Below, in pieces: positions 2,119-37,637 of a stretch of DNA of 64,000 nucleotides; the stretch's first letter is position 1, and the number at the start of each line of letters is the position of its first letter. The DNA is from a virus (lineage: Duplodnaviria > Caudoviricetes), in the IMG/VR virus record IMGVR_UViG_3300032281_000616, positions 128,001-192,000 of that record; one strand, 5' to 3'. Under the pieces are notes generated by a model. That model saw nothing but the letters and a program-made list of their open reading frames with translations, was not told the origin of the DNA and did not search any database. The position numbers and the translations under genes are program-made.

Positions 2119-2883
2119 ATGACAAAATTTCAAGAATTTTATGAAAAGTTTTCTAGGGGAGAATTATCACCAATAAATAAAAGAAGAAAATTATTAATCG
2201 AATCTCAGTATGTATATCCATCATCTGGAGATAAAGCCATTATGGATCTATACGCTTTATATGCTTTGTGGTGGGAACTTGGGGGTGGTAAAACAGCATA
2301 CGATCAAGCCGAAACTAATATAAGACCACATAAAGTTCGGGAGAGAATCAATAGATATTTTGAGGAAGCTCTGGCAGTAATTTCTAATGTTCTTCTGGAC
2401 GAAACCAAAGACGCAATTGCAGATGAAGCAGAAAACATATTCGATGAATATTTGATACCATCTACTGAAGTTGTTAAATGGTTCAAGAGTAATGCACTTC
2501 TTCCGAAATTAGCTAAAGCTTATAATGATGGATCTGGAGATGTATGGTTTAATGTATTTGATTATGGAGAAACCATACATATTTTATCTGCACCATTTTG
2601 GGAAGAATATGCTGATTTGTATGGGGGTAAGAAATGGAGTGTTATAACCCAAGTCACCAAGGAGTTAGATAATGCGATTAGAAGGGATAATACCCTAGCG
2701 TTAATGCATACCTTCGACAAATTCATGGATCTCGAACACAATACAGGTTCTCTTTATTCTAAATTGAAAAGAATGAAAGTGTCTAAGGAAACTCTGGATT
2801 TAAGAGCGGGATTCAGATCTCCTAAAGATTTCACACCTTATGTTAGTGATCGAGTAAAAAAACTAATAGGGTTAATGAGATGA
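2119..2883 (+). CDS. hypothetical late protein
   Basis: Long ORF; start moved to ATG 2119 (MTKFQEFYEK) behind the late promoter. Confidence 0.7.
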   Translation: MTKFQEFYEKFSRGELSPINKRRKLLIESQYVYPSSGDKAIMDLYALYALWWELGGGKTAYDQAETNIRPHKVRERINRYFEEALAVISNVLLDETKDAIADEAENIFDEYLIPSTEVVKWFKSNALLPKLAKAYNDGSGDVWFNVFDYGETIHILSAPFWEEYADLYGGKKWSVITQVTKELDNAIRRDNTLALMHTFDKFMDLEHNTGSLYSKLKRMKVSKETLDLRAGFRSPKDFTPYVSDRVKKLIGLMR

Positions 2884-4367
2884 TTGGAAGGAATCATTTG
2901 TTTAGCCTTCTTGAGAACATCCTGCTCTGAGATTTCTCTACCACTTAATAACATCTCAGCCACCCAATCTTGTAATTTGGGTAAATACATACCGATCTGT
3001 TTGGGGTTTGTTTTGAATTGTGGAAACCATTGCATCATTTTATTACCATTAGCATACTGAGCTATTTGTTTTTTCAGAGCATCAGCACCTCCCGGAACTG
3101 TGTTTAGTTTAGCTTCTGCTCTCTCAATCTTATCCATAAACTCTTGTTTATCAAATAGACCGGGACCACGAGAAGCTTCATCACAATATGCCACAGCCTT
3201 AACAGTCTCCCATGAAGGATCATGAATCAATTTTCTGAGAGTCTTTATATTGAGTGTATCTAGATTATGAACCATCATATGTTTAGCTACAGCATCAAGA
3301 ATGTTCTTTTTATCATTCGGTCCTAGTTTAGCGAATCTCATTCTTTTGAAGATTCCCTCAACAATAGGAACACCAGCAGCTTCATGACCATAATATGTAG
3401 AATGTCCATTCTTTTCACCTCTAGTTGTAGCTTTTCCAAAGTCGTGGAAAAGAACAGCTAAGTTAATCACAGGATCACTATAAGGTGAAACTTTTAAGCA
3501 TTCGTGAATGTGACCAAGAACTTTACTCTCCCCTTCTGGATGATATTTCGGATTATGCATCATTCCATCCATCGCATGAAACTCTGGAAGAATATCTTGT
3601 AATATTCCAGCTTCAGTAAGCTTACTTAAAAAGTTTGATAGAGTTCTTCCTGATTTGGCTGCTTTAAACATTTCTTGAGAAATACTCTCCATAGAAATCA
3701 GAGAAGAATCTTGTAACAAGTGCTTCAATTCTTTAGCAGCTTGTAGAGTCTCTGGCTCAATATCAAAGTCCATCTTAGCTGCGAATCTGAAGACACGAAG
3801 CAAACGGGTAGCATCCTCCTTAAACCTCTCTCTAGGATTACCAACTGCACGAATTAATTTATTCTGAAGATCCTGTAAACCACCCTGATAATCTACAATC
3901 CTACCACGATGATCAAGACCAAAACTATTGATAGTAATATCCCTACGTTTGGTATCCGTTTCAAAACTATCAACCTCTACAGAAACATTACTCTGTCTTC
4001 CCATTTCAGTTTGAGAATCTTCCCTAAATTTAGCTAAGTCATAAGCATAGTTGTTATATAGGATAGTATAAACTGGTTGAGAATCATTCTTTGATATATT
4101 ACGCAACTCAAAATGTTGAGACAAATCCTCGAAGGGGATATTAGTTGCCATATCAACATCATCGATCTCGTTACCCATAATAAGGTCACGAGGAACACCA
4201 CCAACAATATAAATCTCTCCAGAAGGAAACAGATCAACAATCTTGTTCATCAGATTCAAGGCTACTCGGAGTTCTTCAGAAGATGAGATAGCCTTATTCC
4301 ATTTCTCTGAAAAGTCATCTAGATTATTATTGACTGATTCGAAGAAGAATTTTTTGAATGGGATCAT
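2838..4367 (-). CDS. cca: CCA-adding tRNA nucleotidyltransferase with HD domain
   Basis: YIVGGVPRD...DDVDMAT, DTKRRDITINS, RFKEDATRLLRVFRFAAK, then HIHE...VLFHDFGK (HD). Confidence 0.92.
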   Translation of the reverse strand: MIPFKKFFFESVNNNLDDFSEKWNKAISSSEELRVALNLMNKIVDLFPSGEIYIVGGVPRDLIMGNEIDDVDMATNIPFEDLSQHFELRNISKNDSQPVYTILYNNYAYDLAKFREDSQTEMGRQSNVSVEVDSFETDTKRRDITINSFGLDHRGRIVDYQGGLQDLQNKLIRAVGNPRERFKEDATRLLRVFRFAAKMDFDIEPETLQAAKELKHLLQDSSLISMESISQEMFKAAKSGRTLSNFLSKLTEAGILQDILPEFHAMDGMMHNPKYHPEGESKVLGHIHECLKVSPYSDPVINLAVLFHDFGKATTRGEKNGHSTYYGHEAAGVPIVEGIFKRMRFAKLGPNDKKNILDAVAKHMMVHNLDTLNIKTLRKLIHDPSWETVKAVAYCDEASRGPGLFDKQEFMDKIERAEAKLNTVPGGADALKKQIAQYANGNKMMQWFPQFKTNPKQIGMYLPKLQDWVAEMLLSGREISEQDVLKKAKQMIPSNHLINPISFFTRSLT

Positions 4368-21235: not shown

Positions 21236-21310
21236 TGAGAGAGACAGGATTCGAACCTGCATCGATCCATTACGGTACTACGGAGTAGAATTCCGTTCCG
21301 ATACACTCCC
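21236..21310 (-). tRNA. degenerate tRNA-like gene with truncated D-arm
   Basis: GGGAGTG/CTCTCTC acceptor, ACGGA/TCCGT stem, long variable region, GCAGG-TTCGAAT-CCTGT T-arm. Confidence 0.4.
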
Positions 21311-31891: not shown

Positions 31892-31920
31892 ATTATCAAA
31901 AATTATTATCAGAAAACGTT

Positions 31921-32000
31921 TATACTCTGCTCTGCCATCTGAGCTATACCTCCGTTTTATATATGTGGAGGCAGGATGATTCGAACATCCGACACGAGGG
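31921..32000 (-). tRNA. tRNA halves in permuted order (3' half upstream of 5' half)
   Basis: GGATG-TTCGAAT-CATCC-TGCCTCC-A, 13-nt linker, GGAGGTA-TA-GCTC-AGATGGCA-GAGC; the acceptor strands pair fully. Confidence 0.45.
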
Positions 32001-32176
32001 ATTCATTCCTTAGTATTTGCTGTATGTTTTCTTATCAAGTTACATTTTTTGCTACGTGTCCTAGCCAATTAGACGATACCATCTTTCATAGAAAGCGATG
32101 GCAGTGTTAACGGGAGTTGCTTTAAGTTTTGTTTCGAACATGTTGTTAGTTTAACTTAGTGTTTTACGAAGTCAAG

Positions 32177-32438: not shown

Positions 32439-33239
32439 TCAATAATCTTGGCAAGGATCGTTATTATGTCCGGGAAACAGATCTTCTCCAGCCTGTAGTT
32501 TCTTTGAAATCACATAAGCAATTCCATCTTGGAAGATGTAGTTATCAATATCATTATAGTTAGTTAGATTGAAGTTATCAACCTTATCACAAGCCCACCA
32601 TGAACCATTTTTTTGTTGATCGGTGCATTCAATAGCCCAATTGTGATCAATTCTATAAAGCATTTCATGTCTTTCCACACGACATTTACCTTCTAGGTCC
32701 TTATGAGAGAAGAACTGCTCACAGAACATATTAAGACTATTACGTTCCCAATTCTTTACTCTCCATAGGAAGACATTAGCGACATCATCTTTAGGACATT
32801 GAAATGCACGGGCATAAAATACAGCAGGTGTGGAATCCATATAATCCCACTGATTAAAATGTTCATGATTACTATGATCTTTAAGCAACCAATTTTTATT
32901 AAAGTATGCTGTCATCATTGCAGCCGTAACACTTTCAATCTTATTCTGTCTACCACCAAACCATTGTTGAGTGTCAATAGTAGCATCATCAGTTAATACA
33001 AATGTTACTTCATCACTCTGAGCATACAGAGCTTTACATCCTTGCATTTGTTGTGCTACTTCTTTAGCAGAGTCAAACATACAAGTGATCAATGTTTGAT
33101 CGAATGGTCTTTGACAACCCTTAGTCCATGTATGAAAACTTTTCCCGTCAAGTCTCACAATAATTGGAGTCTTTGGTAGAAAGTAGTGTTCGTAAATACT
33201 TTCGTAATTTTTGCAGCGGTCGCCCAAATTGTCTTTCAT
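32439..33239 (-). CDS. thg1: tRNA(His) guanylyltransferase Thg1-like
   Basis: IVRLDGKSFH, YAQSDEV, WFGGRQNK, ARAF, FLWR, FSHKDLEGK. Confidence 0.9.
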   Translation of the reverse strand: MKDNLGDRCKNYESIYEHYFLPKTPIIVRLDGKSFHTWTKGCQRPFDQTLITCMFDSAKEVAQQMQGCKALYAQSDEVTFVLTDDATIDTQQWFGGRQNKIESVTAAMMTAYFNKNWLLKDHSNHEHFNQWDYMDSTPAVFYARAFQCPKDDVANVFLWRVKNWERNSLNMFCEQFFSHKDLEGKCRVERHEMLYRIDHNWAIECTDQQKNGSWWACDKVDNFNLTNYNDIDNYIFQDGIAYVISKKLQAGEDLFPGHNNDPCQDY

Positions 33240-33853
33240 ATAAATAGTATATTCTAGTGTTTAATCGAGAGGATTCAGTTTTAGATAAGCATCTCGCCAC
33301 AACATAAACTCAAGATATTTTACGTATGTATACTTCTCTCTTTTCAACCACTTCATCCATTCTTCTTGAATTTTTTGATCTGGGTGTTGCTTAGATGGTA
33401 ATGTCGGTTTTTTCATACAATGTAATTCTTCTTTTGTGCTATCTCAATTGCCCGAGAACTACACGCCAATAGTCTTTCTATTAGTTCAATAGCTATGCAT
33501 AGTTCTGTCTTTGCTTGTGCTTCTGTTAGTTCGGATACTAACTTAACACCATATTTGGGATTATCTACTTGATAATTTGACCAATCTTTTTTATTCATAA
33601 AGAGGTGGGTGGGTTAACTCATAATTGGTATATTCCAGCTAGGGTCACTCCATAACATCAAGGCGTCTGTCTTTACGTTTTTGACAAAAACTTGAAAACT
33701 GGATATATACTTCATATGCCACCCATTAAAAAATTTTAAGTATATCAAATTCCTCTCTCATATGTATCAGGAGACTCTCCTAGTAGAGCTATGGCCATAG
33801 ATACTTCGGTATTGATGTCGATGATAAACACTCCGAAGAGCATACTTAAATGA

Positions 33854-34003
33854 TTGAGTGTGTGGAATTCGAATCCACGATTAACAGCTATAGACCATTT
33901 TGGGTATATAAGGCATTCTCAACGTTCCCGAATACCTTATATATTATTCCCTCTCAGAGTTTTCGAATTACTCCAACCTCGTATCCACAGAGGATTACAC
34001 TCA
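33854..34003 (-). ncRNA. 150-nt tRNA-like RNA with large internal hairpin
   Basis: TGAGTGT/ACACTCA acceptor, CCTC/GAGG D-like arm, GTGGA-TTCGAAT-TCCAC T-arm, 14-bp internal stem. Confidence 0.55.
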
Positions 34004-34010
34004 AATTATT

Positions 34011-34343
34011 TCACACATTCACATCTTCCCAACCAAGATGACCCTTGAGGGCAACATCTTCATATGGAAGATCCTTGAAGTATTTGATACAACGCTTTTC
34101 AAGGTTCTCAAAAGCTTCAAGGACAGATGCTTCACGATCCTTTACCGCAGGGAGTTTATAAGCTGGGGCTAGAGCGCGAGCAATCGCAATCTTTTCACCA
34201 TGTTTTTTATCCCACTTATCTAGTCGAGTATTACATAGAGAAAAACCGTAATTGATTTTTCCTTCATGTTTGATAGCAACAGCAATTCCTTTCGGTTGGT
34301 TGGTTTCAGTGTTGCGAATGTATGTTTTGATAATGTCTTGCAT
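34011..34343 (-). CDS. conserved phage hypothetical protein
   Basis: YGFSLCN..LDKWDKKHG..IA.ARA; promoter motif at exact spacing. Confidence 0.75.
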   Translation of the reverse strand: MQDIIKTYIRNTETNQPKGIAVAIKHEGKINYGFSLCNTRLDKWDKKHGEKIAIARALAPAYKLPAVKDREASVLEAFENLEKRCIKYFKDLPYEDVALKGHLGWEDVNV

Positions 34344-34364: not shown

Positions 34365-35363
34365 TCACAGATGAACAGTTGTAAGTCCATCAGTAGTTGT
34401 CCAATATTCTCCAAGTTGTTGAAGTGCATTCAATACTTGTTCCTTGGTCGCCCAATTAGGAGAGAAAATATTTTGGATTTGTCGAATAGTTACTTCTGTG
34501 TAACCTTCATCCCTCTTCTTAGTGAGATAATTATCAACCTTTGTTACAAAGGCATCTAATTCCTTAACAAGATCGGGAACAATTGTATTTTCTCCATCCT
34601 CATCAACAACGGGTGCTGTAATTTCTTCTACAAAGTCTGACATAACTTCATATTTACACACACGAACCTTTTGACAATTACAATCAGATGGAACTGATAC
34701 AACATCAGCAGGATTGATCTTAACTACAATTAGTTTAGAGGCAAATCCCCTAGCATAATCAAGAGATCCAGCATGAAGACCGAATGAACAATGCTTTTCA
34801 CGATTATCATCAACATCACGACGACGAACTTCAATAACAGATCCTACTCCATTATAAATTTGTCCATCAGAATTAACATAACCCTGAATAACCTTAGTAT
34901 TCAAATTTCCATGTGACGAAAAATAGTTATAATTGACACCCTTATAGGCAAGGAAGCAACCATCTTCTGTGAGAGGTAGTTCCTTATAGTCTAGGAATTC
35001 TGTCAATTCCTTCACACTCTGAGCACTTGGATTTTGCTCTAGGTTAGCCCAGAACTTCTCAAAGTGTTCCAATGGGAGTCCATCAGCGATGATAGACAAA
35101 ACCTTATCTGAGAAAGCTTTAGGAAGCTTCTCGCCCTTATAGAAGATTTCTTCACCTTGGATATCAAATCCTTCAGTTTCTTCGATAACCTTATCAGCCT
35201 TGACGACCTTATTAAGGATCGCCTCGACCTCTGCTTCTTGCTCATCTTTTGGTAGTTGAAAGACTTTGATAATTTTTGGATATCGTTGATCAGTCTTCTC
35301 AACGCGGATATTCTTTCCGTTAATAAAAAGAATAATTGCTTCTGTGTTAATTGCGTATTTCAT
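34365..35363 (-). CDS. rIIB: rIIB lysis inhibition protein
   Basis: FWANL.QNPS..SV.EL..FL....LP.TEDGCFLAYKGV; CSFGLH.GS..YA; VKINPADVVSVP.D...KVRVCKYEV. Confidence 0.9.
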   Translation of the reverse strand: MKYAINTEAIILFINGKNIRVEKTDQRYPKIIKVFQLPKDEQEAEVEAILNKVVKADKVIEETEGFDIQGEEIFYKGEKLPKAFSDKVLSIIADGLPLEHFEKFWANLEQNPSAQSVKELTEFLDYKELPLTEDGCFLAYKGVNYNYFSSHGNLNTKVIQGYVNSDGQIYNGVGSVIEVRRRDVDDNREKHCSFGLHAGSLDYARGFASKLIVVKINPADVVSVPSDCNCQKVRVCKYEVMSDFVEEITAPVVDEDGENTIVPDLVKELDAFVTKVDNYLTKKRDEGYTEVTIRQIQNIFSPNWATKEQVLNALQQLGEYWTTTDGLTTVHL

Positions 35364-35676: not shown

Positions 35677-35768
35677 TGGGTGGGAGCGTCCTCCCATAAT
35701 GATATTGGATTCGAACCAATTACTAACCCGATCAGGCTTGGAAGTCACCATGCTTCTCATCATTCCCA
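35677..35768 (-). ncRNA. tRNA-like RNA with a hairpin inserted in the acceptor stem
   Basis: TGGG-AATGAT...GAAG/CTTC...ATTGG-TTCGAAT-CCAAT-ATCATT-[TGGGAG gacg CTCCCA]-CCCA. Confidence 0.45.
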
Positions 35769-35771
35769 AAA

Positions 35772-37637
35772 TTATTTTGTTGTAAGGATTTTACGCAGAT
35801 CTTCTCGTGTAATTTTTGTGTTGTATGTTTCAATACTAGACAAAACCCTACCTCGGAAAGAATTTTCCTTCAAAATCTTATTCTTGACCATATTCAATCT
35901 AGTCAACTTTGATGGATTTTTTCCAATGACCTTGATCAGTCTTTGAGATGGATGGATTCTAAACATCGCACTTTTAACACGATATTCGGCATTCTCCATA
36001 TCTCTTTTGGCTTGCTCAATGACATTGAGCTCAGCGCAGCGTTTTGTATATTCTGGTGAGTTAAGCTCAAACCAACCCAGTTCGAGAAGTTGTTCTTTCA
36101 TCTTCTTAGAATTACAAACCCAATAAGGATTATTAACACCACACTCAGAAGTCAATCCAATAACGCGCTGTCTAAGGTATGAGATACTATCAATAGATTT
36201 TTCCCATCCATCTACGATTTCAACACCGTTGAAAGACTTATCAGTTACATGTTCATCCAATTCTTCAGCAGTGAAATTTCTCTTGTGACCATTGAAATAC
36301 ACAACATACCTAACCTCATTAGGATCTTTGGCTAGTTTGGGTAAACCAAGTTTCTTAACGTCTACAAATGTTACATCAGAAACATCCAAGGTATCGGTTG
36401 ATAAAATATCACCTTTATTAAGCATCCAAACAATTTGTGTATTTGGAAACAACCCAGCAATATATTGATCAAGACGCTTCACCCAACCTTTGTATGACTT
36501 GATATCTGGAATCTGATACACCACATACTTACCTGTCGTTTTATTATGACCATACCCAGTGTGAATATAATCTAGACATTTTTGAATTTTATAAGTATCT
36601 GGAAAAGTATTAGAGAATGAGTATCTGAACCACTCACCTTCATAGTATGAATTATGCTTATTTTCTAAAATCGCTTCCCCAAATTTTGGTGTAACAATCT
36701 TGGATCGATCTTCATCACTAAGTTGAACTATGGCATCAGTGATTTCATCCAGAACCTTTTTATTGTTTGGAGTATCTTCAATACTTTCACGAGAAATTGG
36801 CACAGTCAATTTACCGATAGGAACATCCACTACAATCTTACCCAGAGGGTTCACAACCTTGATATCGGATCGCATATTGTAAACAATCCCACCCATACGA
36901 ATGGCTACATAATCAGGAGATGTCCAAAATGTGCTTTGGTATAAGTTGATGGTATAGTCCCCGATATCCTTAGTTAGGAGAGGTTGAATAGGAGTATGTT
37001 CAACATCATATTGATCTGTAAATTTAATATTTGCATTCGGTAGAAAGCGTTCCACGAAAGATGCTGATTCTGTAGAGAAATTGTAGTAGTTTTTGTTTAC
37101 ATCTAGTGATACCTCCAAACCCGATTCTGTTGTCGGTTCTGGATCTGATACACGATAGATTTCTCCTACAGATAAACCATTGTCACCAGCACCGAGAATA
37201 CAAGCGTATTGAGTTTTTAATCCTTCATGATATGAGGTGATGTAGAATGAATCCGAGACAGCAAATGGTGACAATGCACCTACACCAAATCCACCGACTT
37301 GGTTATTATTGTTTCTCTTATCAGATCCACCATACATACCATAAATGGTTCTGATAGACTCCTCACTAAGTCCCTTAGCGAAGTCCCTAGAACTCCACAC
37401 ATATTGACCATTGACATTCTCAAGCTTAACCTCTACAGCTTTGTCGATACCATACTTGATATGTTCATCCTGAGAGTTTGTGATAGTCTCACGGATACAT
37501 GCGAGGGTTTTATTGGAGTAAATCTTATCGCGTAAAAATCCAGCGATCATATCTTCAGCACCCGAAGCTACTCCCATTTTTGAAACGTTCATGTCTTCCG
37601 ATGCTATGGTGGGTGAATTCTTAAAGTTTAATTTCAT
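35772..37637 (-). CDS. rIIA: rIIA lysis inhibition protein (GHKL ATPase N-terminus)
   Basis: IYSNK..ACIRE.ITNS.D.H, RDFAKGLS, YGGSDKR..N.QVGGFGVG..SPFA..DSF; adjacent to rIIB. Confidence 0.9.
   Translation of the reverse strand: MKLNFKNSPTIASEDMNVSKMGVASGAEDMIAGFLRDKIYSNKTLACIRETITNSQDEHIKYGIDKAVEVKLENVNGQYVWSSRDFAKGLSEESIRTIYGMYGGSDKRNNNNQVGGFGVGALSPFAVSDSFYITSYHEGLKTQYACILGAGDNGLSVGEIYRVSDPEPTTESGLEVSLDVNKNYYNFSTESASFVERFLPNANIKFTDQYDVEHTPIQPLLTKDIGDYTINLYQSTFWTSPDYVAIRMGGIVYNMRSDIKVVNPLGKIVVDVPIGKLTVPISRESIEDTPNNKKVLDEITDAIVQLSDEDRSKIVTPKFGEAILENKHNSYYEGEWFRYSFSNTFPDTYKIQKCLDYIHTGYGHNKTTGKYVVYQIPDIKSYKGWVKRLDQYIAGLFPNTQIVWMLNKGDILSTDTLDVSDVTFVDVKKLGLPKLAKDPNEVRYVVYFNGHKRNFTAEELDEHVTDKSFNGVEIVDGWEKSIDSISYLRQRVIGLTSECGVNNPYWVCNSKKMKEQLLELGWFELNSPEYTKRCAELNVIEQAKRDMENAEYRVKSAMFRIHPSQRLIKVIGKNPSKLTRLNMVKNKILKENSFRGRVLSSIETYNTKITREDLRKILTTK

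Follow-up and report, generated by a model that had tools for sequence, protein, structure and literature searches.

The slot that follows rIIB in an uncultured freshwater T4-like phage harbors a tRNA-shaped RNA gene, which probably encodes a conserved, tRNA-derived, non-decoding structured RNA of ~150 nt that is released from its transcript and acts through its loops as a tRNA mimic. The gene occupies positions 34004..33853 (minus strand) of the window, i.e., the whole 64,000-nucleotide stretch analyzed here (positions 128,001 to 192,000 of IMG/VR record IMGVR_UViG_3300032281_000616), and measures 152 nt including a discriminator U at 33853. An initial annotation, made from the sequence alone, had placed a tRNA-like element at 33854-34003; its structure stands, with the strand now assigned as minus and the limits corrected.

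The element is confirmed as a real RNA structure, far beyond chance, and each of its six helices is maintained by compensating base changes. The family that it forms with its homologues numbers at least 11 sequences, and every one comes from an uncultured freshwater T4-like phage. Neither Rfam nor the literature searched yielded a description of these RNAs, and the element thus defines a small RNA family that is apparently undescribed.

Architecture of the RNA

The minus strand of the element folds at -45.9 kcal/mol in RNAfold (z = -4.68), a value equaled by none of 200 shuffles, and RNAfold arrives unaided at a six-helix layout. The plus strand folds more poorly (z = -3.16). From 5′ to 3′, the helices are the acceptor, the D arm, three hairpins (H1, H2, and H3), the T arm, and the 3′ strand of the acceptor, all on the minus strand.

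In the acceptor stem, UUGAGUGU (33997..34004) pairs with ACACUCAA (33854..33861), after which come the discriminator U and CAU; no CCA is encoded at this 3′ end. The stem, initially counted as 7 bp, has 8 bp in most members. Its eighth pair is U-A, G-C, or A-U depending on the member and is missing from both strands in L060. Alignment cells in this stem are paired in 98.7% of cases, with compensatory changes in five of the eight pairs. A 3-nt linker leads to the D arm (33977..33993), a CCUC/GAGG stem with 85 to 90% of cells paired and a 9-nt loop, UGUGGAUAC, whose GG recurs in the D loops of all members, in agreement with the D-like arm first reported.

H1 (33954..33976) is an anticodon-arm-like hairpin of 7 bp with a 9-nt loop, AAUUCGAAA, at 33961-33969. 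It had been described as a 5-bp stem; we find 6 to 7 bp plus an A-A mismatch, with compensatory changes at three pairs (G-C to C-G and G-C to U-A). Loop lengths across members are 9, 9, 9, 8, 8, 9, 10, 4, and 7 nt, and this variation from 4 to 10 nt means that there is no conserved anticodon. A central UCG with U before and A after is present in 8 of 10 members, and the loop core UUCGAA becomes AUCGAU in L047 and L060. The loop is an AACA tetraloop in L050 and a 7-nt AGCGCGA without U33 in the diverged copy from G001.

H2 (33902..33951) is an inserted 50-nt hairpin. The 14-bp stem noted in the initial annotation is indeed its core and is perfect, but that description omitted the GGG/CCC base, the 5-nt one-sided internal loop (AAUAA), and the 11-nt apical loop GGGAACGUUGA (33919-33929). 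Each lineage has its own stem sequence, yet every copy folds as a hairpin. The apical loop contains GGAACGUU, which is present in 8 of 10 aligned members and is the best-conserved loop sequence of the family. H3 (33883..33899), previously overlooked, is a variable-arm-like 6-bp hairpin (AAUGGU-CUAUA-GCUGUU) between H2 and the T arm, with 100% of cells paired. Its sequence is unusually conserved, and in L015 and L045 C-G takes the place of its U-G and G-U pairs. The T arm (33862..33878; GUGGA-UUCGAAU-UCCAC) is canonical and as perfect as first stated; 100% of its cells are paired, compensatory changes occur in four of its five pairs, and the T-loop consensus UUC(G/A)A is kept.

In body plan the element follows long-variable-arm (class II) tRNAs, its acceptor stem having 8 bp and its T stem 5 bp. 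It departs from the class II plan in its oversized, length-variable anticodon-type loop and in the 50-nt hairpin between the anticodon-type and variable-type arms. The initial annotation had proposed that the elbow and acceptor are kept while the anticodon region is replaced. The first part is borne out by the family, but the second is not: the anticodon-arm-like hairpin H1 is retained, and H2 has been inserted on the side of the variable region, ahead of the variable-arm-like H3. Given a linker of 3 instead of 2 nt between acceptor and D arm, and a U in place of A14 at the start of the D loop, the tertiary core may deviate from that of a tRNA.

Covariation and sequence conservation

We aligned ten members with MAFFT from sequence only, fitting the alignment to no structure. 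Standard pairs occupied 86.4% of the cells, compared with 74.5% for column shuffles and 40 to 44% when partners were slid by one to three columns. Two-sided compensatory changes were seen in 28 of 47 pairs, and none of 500 shuffles reached any of five measures. In a model-fitted covariance model (CM) alignment, 91.1% of cells were paired, with two-sided changes in 29 of 47 pairs. These covariation counts come from eleven sequences of closely related phages, and some of them are inherited rather than independent. Minimum free energy folds of four homologues, computed independently, gave the same six-helix layout. The initial annotation had made its proposal depend on the stems being conserved in relatives, and all ten homologues keep every helix with compensatory changes.

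Read on the opposite strand, the U-G and G-U pairs of H1 and H3, which are nearly invariant, would turn into A-C mismatches, so the RNA is a minus-strand transcript. Features conserved in sequence, all of them candidates for contact with a partner, are the UU...AA-U ends, GGUUG 3′ of the D stem, the H1 loop core, GGAACGUU, and nearly all of H3. Conservation thus separates the parts kept for their shape (acceptor, T arm, and elbow) from the parts kept for their sequence (the two loops and H3), and this separation offers concrete mutational targets.

Members and distribution of the family

The ten homologues are found in metagenomic T4-like phages. Nine of them (L007, L015, L043, L045, L047, L050, L055, L057, and L060) were recovered by anchoring on rIIB and a conserved 110-amino-acid (110-aa) ORF and lie directly 3′ of these two genes; the L007 copy is 76% identical to the element. 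The tenth, a diverged member of 140 nt in a sister phage (L067:1501-1640 = G001:136256-136395), has another genomic context, with no 110-aa ORF directly upstream, and a shorter H2 that lacks GGAACGUU.

A covariance model of the family, R1, was built from ten sequences. Within the loci recovered by synteny or exact patterns, which R1 searches covered, the element scored 163 bits against its own model, the nine syntenic homologues scored 90 to 157 bits, and the diverged member scored 56.7 bits, so that all ten further members fall between 57 and 157 bits. Membership is defined by six helices in tRNA order and by the UU...AA-U ends, and the element has both.

Wider searches yielded little. The locus had no blastn match in 50,697 phage records, a degenerate H3/T-arm pattern had no match in 185,579 prokaryote genomes (one per species), and the 110-aa ORF used alone as an anchor retrieved no related loci from IMG/VR. 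Exact and gapped motif scans of IMG/VR returned just one known relative apart from chance matches, which we discarded (six 17-mer matches and the tRNA region of a 543-kb phage). Since these pattern scans revealed no further members, the family looks confined to a narrow clade.

Gene neighborhood and the slot after rIIB

The source genome is complete, with a length of 202 kb and terminal repeats. The gene order, all on the minus strand, is rIIA (35772-37637), tRNA-Ile, rIIB, the 110-aa ORF, the element, and 255 nt without a long ORF, and further on two small ORFs, a Thg1-like gene, a YrlA-like match, a GIY-YIG endonuclease gene, and thyX. The rIIB homologue (34365..35363, minus strand) matches PHROG 609 (E = 4.8e-52) and served as the upstream anchor; the corresponding rIIB gene in related loci bears PF26926. 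The 110-aa ORF (34011..34343, minus strand) ends with its stop codon 6 nt before the RNA. Its homologues share 62 to 99% identity, it has no Pfam or PHROG match, and in the protein Atlas it falls in unnamed viral clusters only. The element therefore does sit in an intergenic slot of its own, as originally described, between the stop of this ORF (34011) and the 255 nt without a long ORF.

ARAGORN calls ten tRNAs in the genome, including a tRNA-Leu split by a 38-nt hairpin, and no tRNA-Arg or tRNA-Ser gene. The tRNA-Ile(GAU) between rIIA and rIIB (35695-35766, minus strand) is an ARAGORN-only call, without an Rfam call at E = 0.1. Conversely, a tRNA at 21236-21310 (minus strand), whose D arm is reduced and whose variable region carries 16 inserted nt, is called by Rfam only (33 bits).

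Related phages fill the same slot in different ways. It holds five ordinary tRNA genes in L052 (2850-3710), a tRNA-like RNA of 73 nt in L059 (2841-2913), whose acceptor has 8 bp and whose T stem has 5 bp, and, in L002 (3654-3750), a permuted RNA in which the T arm precedes the D arm inside a 9-bp terminal stem. The slot after rIIB thus appears to be a hot spot of tRNA-gene remodeling. Such a slot bears on the origin of tRNA mimics and on the involvement of phage tRNA-type genes in conflicts over host tRNA, for which evidence is accumulating. A protein of 254 to 257 aa without a Pfam family begins 16 to 17 nt 3′ of the RNA in three relatives (L007:6592-7365, L055:3009-3782, and L057:3008-3772) and is absent from this genome.

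Comparison with known tRNA-like RNAs

Phage T4 makes two stable RNAs from its tRNA cluster, C and D, which have been known for about fifty years and whose function is unexplained. Species 1 RNA (rnaC, 139 nt) is the closest known analogue of the element, of the same kind but not of the same family; its function is described as unknown (PMC3014915; PMC9697503; PMC12685909). Like rnaC and species 2 RNA (rnaD), which lie among the T4 tRNA genes, the element would be a small stable RNA of a T4-type phage. In addition, the T arm of rnaC is canonical and stacks on an acceptor-like stem of 7 bp, which also covaries among T-even relatives, and the RNA has a long hairpin and, directly ahead of the T arm, a second one. 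In contrast to the element, rnaC has neither a D arm nor an anticodon-type hairpin, and it resides in the T4 tRNA cluster rather than after rIIB. R1 scores 9.5 bits on rnaC, from the T arm only, and there is no other sequence or CM similarity. GGAACGUU does occur in rnaC, but it is not conserved in the Citrobacter phage homologue, so the match is probably due to chance and was rejected as a sign of homology. The failure of R1 to detect rnaC, the absence of the D arm and H1, and the unconserved GGAACGUU together place the two RNAs in separate families. The element may be seen as an independent and well-supported case of the idea raised by T4 RNAs C and D, in distant freshwater relatives.

Within T4 rnaC itself (L061:1409-1547, minus strand), the 3′ end, CGUUUCGU, has its full complement in the internal stretch ACGGAACG. 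Pairing of the two would give an alternative 8-bp acceptor and a 92-nt tRNA-Sec-like fold, with a nonsignificant Rfam tRNA-Sec score of 17.5 bits; the 5′-terminal acceptor pairing is backed by three relatives in which A-U has changed to G-C.

Among cellular RNAs, tRNA-Sec and the allo-tRNAs have acceptor/T helices of 8/5, 8/4, or 9/3 bp (Mukai et al., PMC5389517). The element resembles class II tRNAs and tRNA-Sec in its arm order, long variable arm, canonical D-loop GG, and T loop, and it shares the 8-bp acceptor and 5-bp T stem of bacterial tRNA-Sec. It differs from tRNA-Sec in the extra 50-nt hairpin, the anticodon-type loop of 4 to 10 nt without UCA, the 3-nt linker, and a D stem of 4 rather than 6 bp, and it has no match to the tRNA-Sec model (RF01852) at E values up to 10. 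An origin from a tRNA is supported by the best R1 matches outside the family, which are T4 tRNA-Leu and tRNA-Ser and the phage's own long-arm tRNA-Pro (all class II), and by the five tRNA genes that stand in the same slot of L052.

YrlA is a non-decoding mimic of the tRNA T arm, D arm, and acceptor found in phages and bacteria. It is circularly permuted, with its ends at the anticodon-stem position and its acceptor closed by a loop, and it carries a Ro-binding stem and is usually accompanied by an rsr (TROVE) gene. Although the element is likewise a tRNA mimic of phages that would not decode, its arms follow the normal tRNA order, it has no match to the YrlA model (RF02553) at E values up to 10, and no Ro/TROVE gene was found in genomes G000, G001, or G003. 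An identity with YrlA was rejected on these grounds.

A separate sequence 1.8 kb downstream of the element and downstream of the Thg1-like gene (31893-32023, minus strand) comprises a T arm, a closed acceptor-like hairpin, and a D arm. Its match to RF02553 scores 34.6 bits, short of the gathering score of 69, and similar subthreshold YrlA matches are present in two sister phages (L002:8610-8684 and L004:7125-7245).

Hairpin insertions also occur in tRNA genes of Lak megaphages, where they were termed “enigmatic introns” (PMC6784885). These insertions and that in the phage's own tRNA-Leu resemble H2 in being hairpins, without a self-splicing core, in tRNA-type genes of large phages. However, the tRNAs that they interrupt in the anticodon loop are normal in other respects, and their anticodon is readable, whereas H2 lies on the variable-region side, has a conserved apical loop, and accompanies an abnormal anticodon-type loop.

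Processing, decoding, and possible function

RNase P, the 3′ processing enzymes, and the CCA-adding enzymes read the acceptor/T helix and the D/T elbow. Because these parts of the element are canonical and the rest is rebuilt, we infer that the tRNA shape has been kept for processing rather than for decoding. In 8 of the 10 syntenic members (the window and seven homologues), the RNA starts 5 to 10 nt past the stop codon of the upstream ORF, the gap being 131 nt in L060 and 151 nt in L050, and no conserved promoter box lies between the ORF and the RNA in any syntenic member. Co-transcription with the 110-aa ORF, followed by excision, would therefore be the simplest route. Among public sequencing runs, none with RNA data was listed for this stretch. 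A TAAATA box considered as a promoter is found in only three members, is partly formed by the stop codon, and is not conserved. Host RNase P is predicted to cut the 5′ end, and the 3′ end would be trimmed and receive CCA. The phage, which encodes no CCA in the element, does encode a PolyA_pol/CCA-type nucleotidyltransferase (2838-4367, minus strand; PF01743 match at ~3849-4214).

The released RNA is predicted to be stable and non-decoding. Its candidate working surfaces are the two conserved loops, UCGA-centered on H1 and GGAACGUU on H2, with which it may contact a putative partner, such as a tRNA-handling protein or RNA or another copy of the same RNA. As a function, we favor the possibility that the tRNA mimic occupies or diverts a tRNA-binding factor during infection, although this is the weakest step of the proposed mechanism. 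Mimicry of a tRNA, already proposed in the initial annotation, agrees with the conserved and covarying acceptor, D-loop GG, and T arm combined with the lack of a conserved anticodon loop.

A more specific version of this reading, which we consider rather speculative, is that the RNA is a tRNA-shaped effector whose palindromic loops are active, either by forming kissing-loop dimers or chains or by serving as a decoy for a host tRNA-directed defense or tRNA-handling enzyme. The H1 and H2 loops each contain a purine-flanked 6-nt palindrome (A-A-UUCGAA-A and G-AACGUU-A, respectively), in the same layout as the 9-nt dimerization loop of HIV-1. In the H1 loop the palindrome survives the U..A to A..U swap, and the H2 loops of L057 and L050 are G-U-tolerant quasi-palindromes. 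Such loops fit kissing and, equally well, an extra closing pair around a UCGA or ACGU tetraloop. If true, this reading would give the first functional handle on the stable tRNA-like RNAs of phages. Pairing of the H1 loop with the T loop or the H2 loop of the same molecule was also considered and discarded, as the alignment shows these loops to be either not complementary or not covarying.

It is also unlikely, to a similar degree, that the element is simply a processing signal (a “t-element”), at which RNase P and 3′ enzymes cut an early polycistronic transcript after the 110-aa ORF and the excised RNA has no role of its own. Such a cut would define where the mRNA of the 110-aa ORF ends and where the downstream message begins. 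The short distance between the ORF and the RNA in most syntenic members would suit this function, as would the tRNA genes or other tRNA-like RNAs that occupy the slot in relatives without the family, and the t-elements of plant mitochondria (PMC1920247) are a precedent. However, the acceptor, T arm, and elbow would suffice for a processing signal, which leaves unexplained why the H1 and H2 loops and H3 are conserved in sequence and why a 50-nt hairpin is kept up by many compensatory changes. Moreover, the diverged G001 copy lies in a different context in which no 110-aa ORF directly precedes it.

Returning to the non-decoding RNA that we favor, its distance from working tRNAs is considerable. 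An Rfam 15 search, one of the checks suggested in the initial annotation, gave no match of any kind to the element at the gathering score or at E values up to 10, including to the tRNA model (RF00005), and ARAGORN called nothing, whether introns (of up to 300 nt) were disallowed or permitted. No tmRNA was detected by ARAGORN -m or Rfam. The element does have the acceptor, GG D loop, and UUCRANN T loop of a tRNA elbow, but with an 8-bp acceptor and a 3-nt linker, and it does not have the tRNA anticodon arm of a 5-bp stem and a 7-nt loop with U33 and a conserved anticodon. The RNA is thus very probably unable to decode, though the UCG in the H1 loop of most members may retain a residual or unusual decoding role.

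We regard it as improbable that the element is a working tRNA of the Arg-UCG or Ser-CGA type, charged and decoding, whose H2 insertion is either spliced by proteins or tolerated as a giant arm. This possibility draws on the central UCG in the H1 loop of most members, on the hairpin-split tRNA-Leu and the long-extra-arm proline tRNA of the same genome, and on the lack of tRNA-Arg and tRNA-Ser genes. It also draws on 392 deletion variants called as tRNA-Arg(UCG) when the ARAGORN threshold was lowered to 90%. At the default threshold, however, no deletion yielded the Arg call, and a scan deleting every possible internal segment produced no tRNA with the native anticodon arm; a tRNA-Ile(UAU) called from two artificial deletions was a chimera of unrelated stems. 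The H1 loop of 8, 9, or 10 nt, its U33-less form in G001, and the L050 tetraloop also speak against decoding, as does the anticodon-type stem of seven layers plus an A-A mismatch.

An intron, as the initial annotation had alternatively suggested, is disfavored by the deletion scan, by the variable H1 loop, and by the conserved H2 apical loop. No single-stranded or loop sequences are more conserved than GGAACGUU and H3, which would be odd for a discarded intron. Since the best-conserved loop would lie at the tip of the supposed intron and no insertion-free allele was seen among the relatives, this reading is weakened further. We found no Rfam intron match, no group I core, and no bulge-helix-bulge motif in the element, and no RtcB ligase is encoded in the phage.

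Far less probable is a dependence on the neighboring Thg1-like enzyme, for which the RNA would be a substrate, template, or cofactor, for example by having the end of its 8-bp acceptor built or repaired. Thg1 creates the 8-bp acceptor stem of tRNA-His. The gene for a Thg1-like 3′-5′ nucleotidyltransferase (32439-33239, minus strand; Pfam E = 3e-28) lies ~600 nt downstream of the element and is likewise downstream in L015. However, the eighth acceptor pair of the RNA is encoded in the genome, and strict co-occurrence fails: G004 (96% complete) has the RNA and no Thg1 gene, and in G001, G002, and G003 Thg1 is present but the RNA does not adjoin it. As G004 carries the RNA and neither nucleotidyltransferase gene, the RNA is independent of both the Thg1-like and the CCA enzymes. 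The two enzymes can be viewed in their own right as a kit for tRNA end maturation or repair, which this sister phage does without.

Finally, there is almost no chance that the element is not an RNA gene, but rather a fold that arose by chance or a portion of the plus-strand ORFs at 33850-34041 and 33854-34048: both frames are open across it in this window, but they contain stops in nearly all relatives, member lengths differ by non-multiples of three, 8 of 10 relatives have stop codons in all six frames, and a chance fold is at odds with covariation above all 500 shuffles and with the strand-specific G-U pairs, so that covariation and the stops in the plus-strand frames refute this reading.

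Other possibly structured sequences next to the element

Two further stretches between the element and the Thg1-like gene attracted our attention. Immediately 3′ of the element, positions 33742-33852 (minus strand) are ~90% conserved in L043 and L060 and contain the small hairpins GCUC-UUCG-GAGU and GGAGAGUCUCC, as well as a possible 33-aa ORF (MLFGVFIID...; 33843..33742). Farther downstream, a block of ~125 nt (33603-33727, minus strand) is closed by AAUGGGUGG...CCCACCCACC and ends at the ATG of a 61-aa ORF (33598). The closing stem, found again in L004, shows covariation in L045 (GGUCGG/CCGACC). The block is possibly a second structured RNA, or else it serves as a 5′ leader element.
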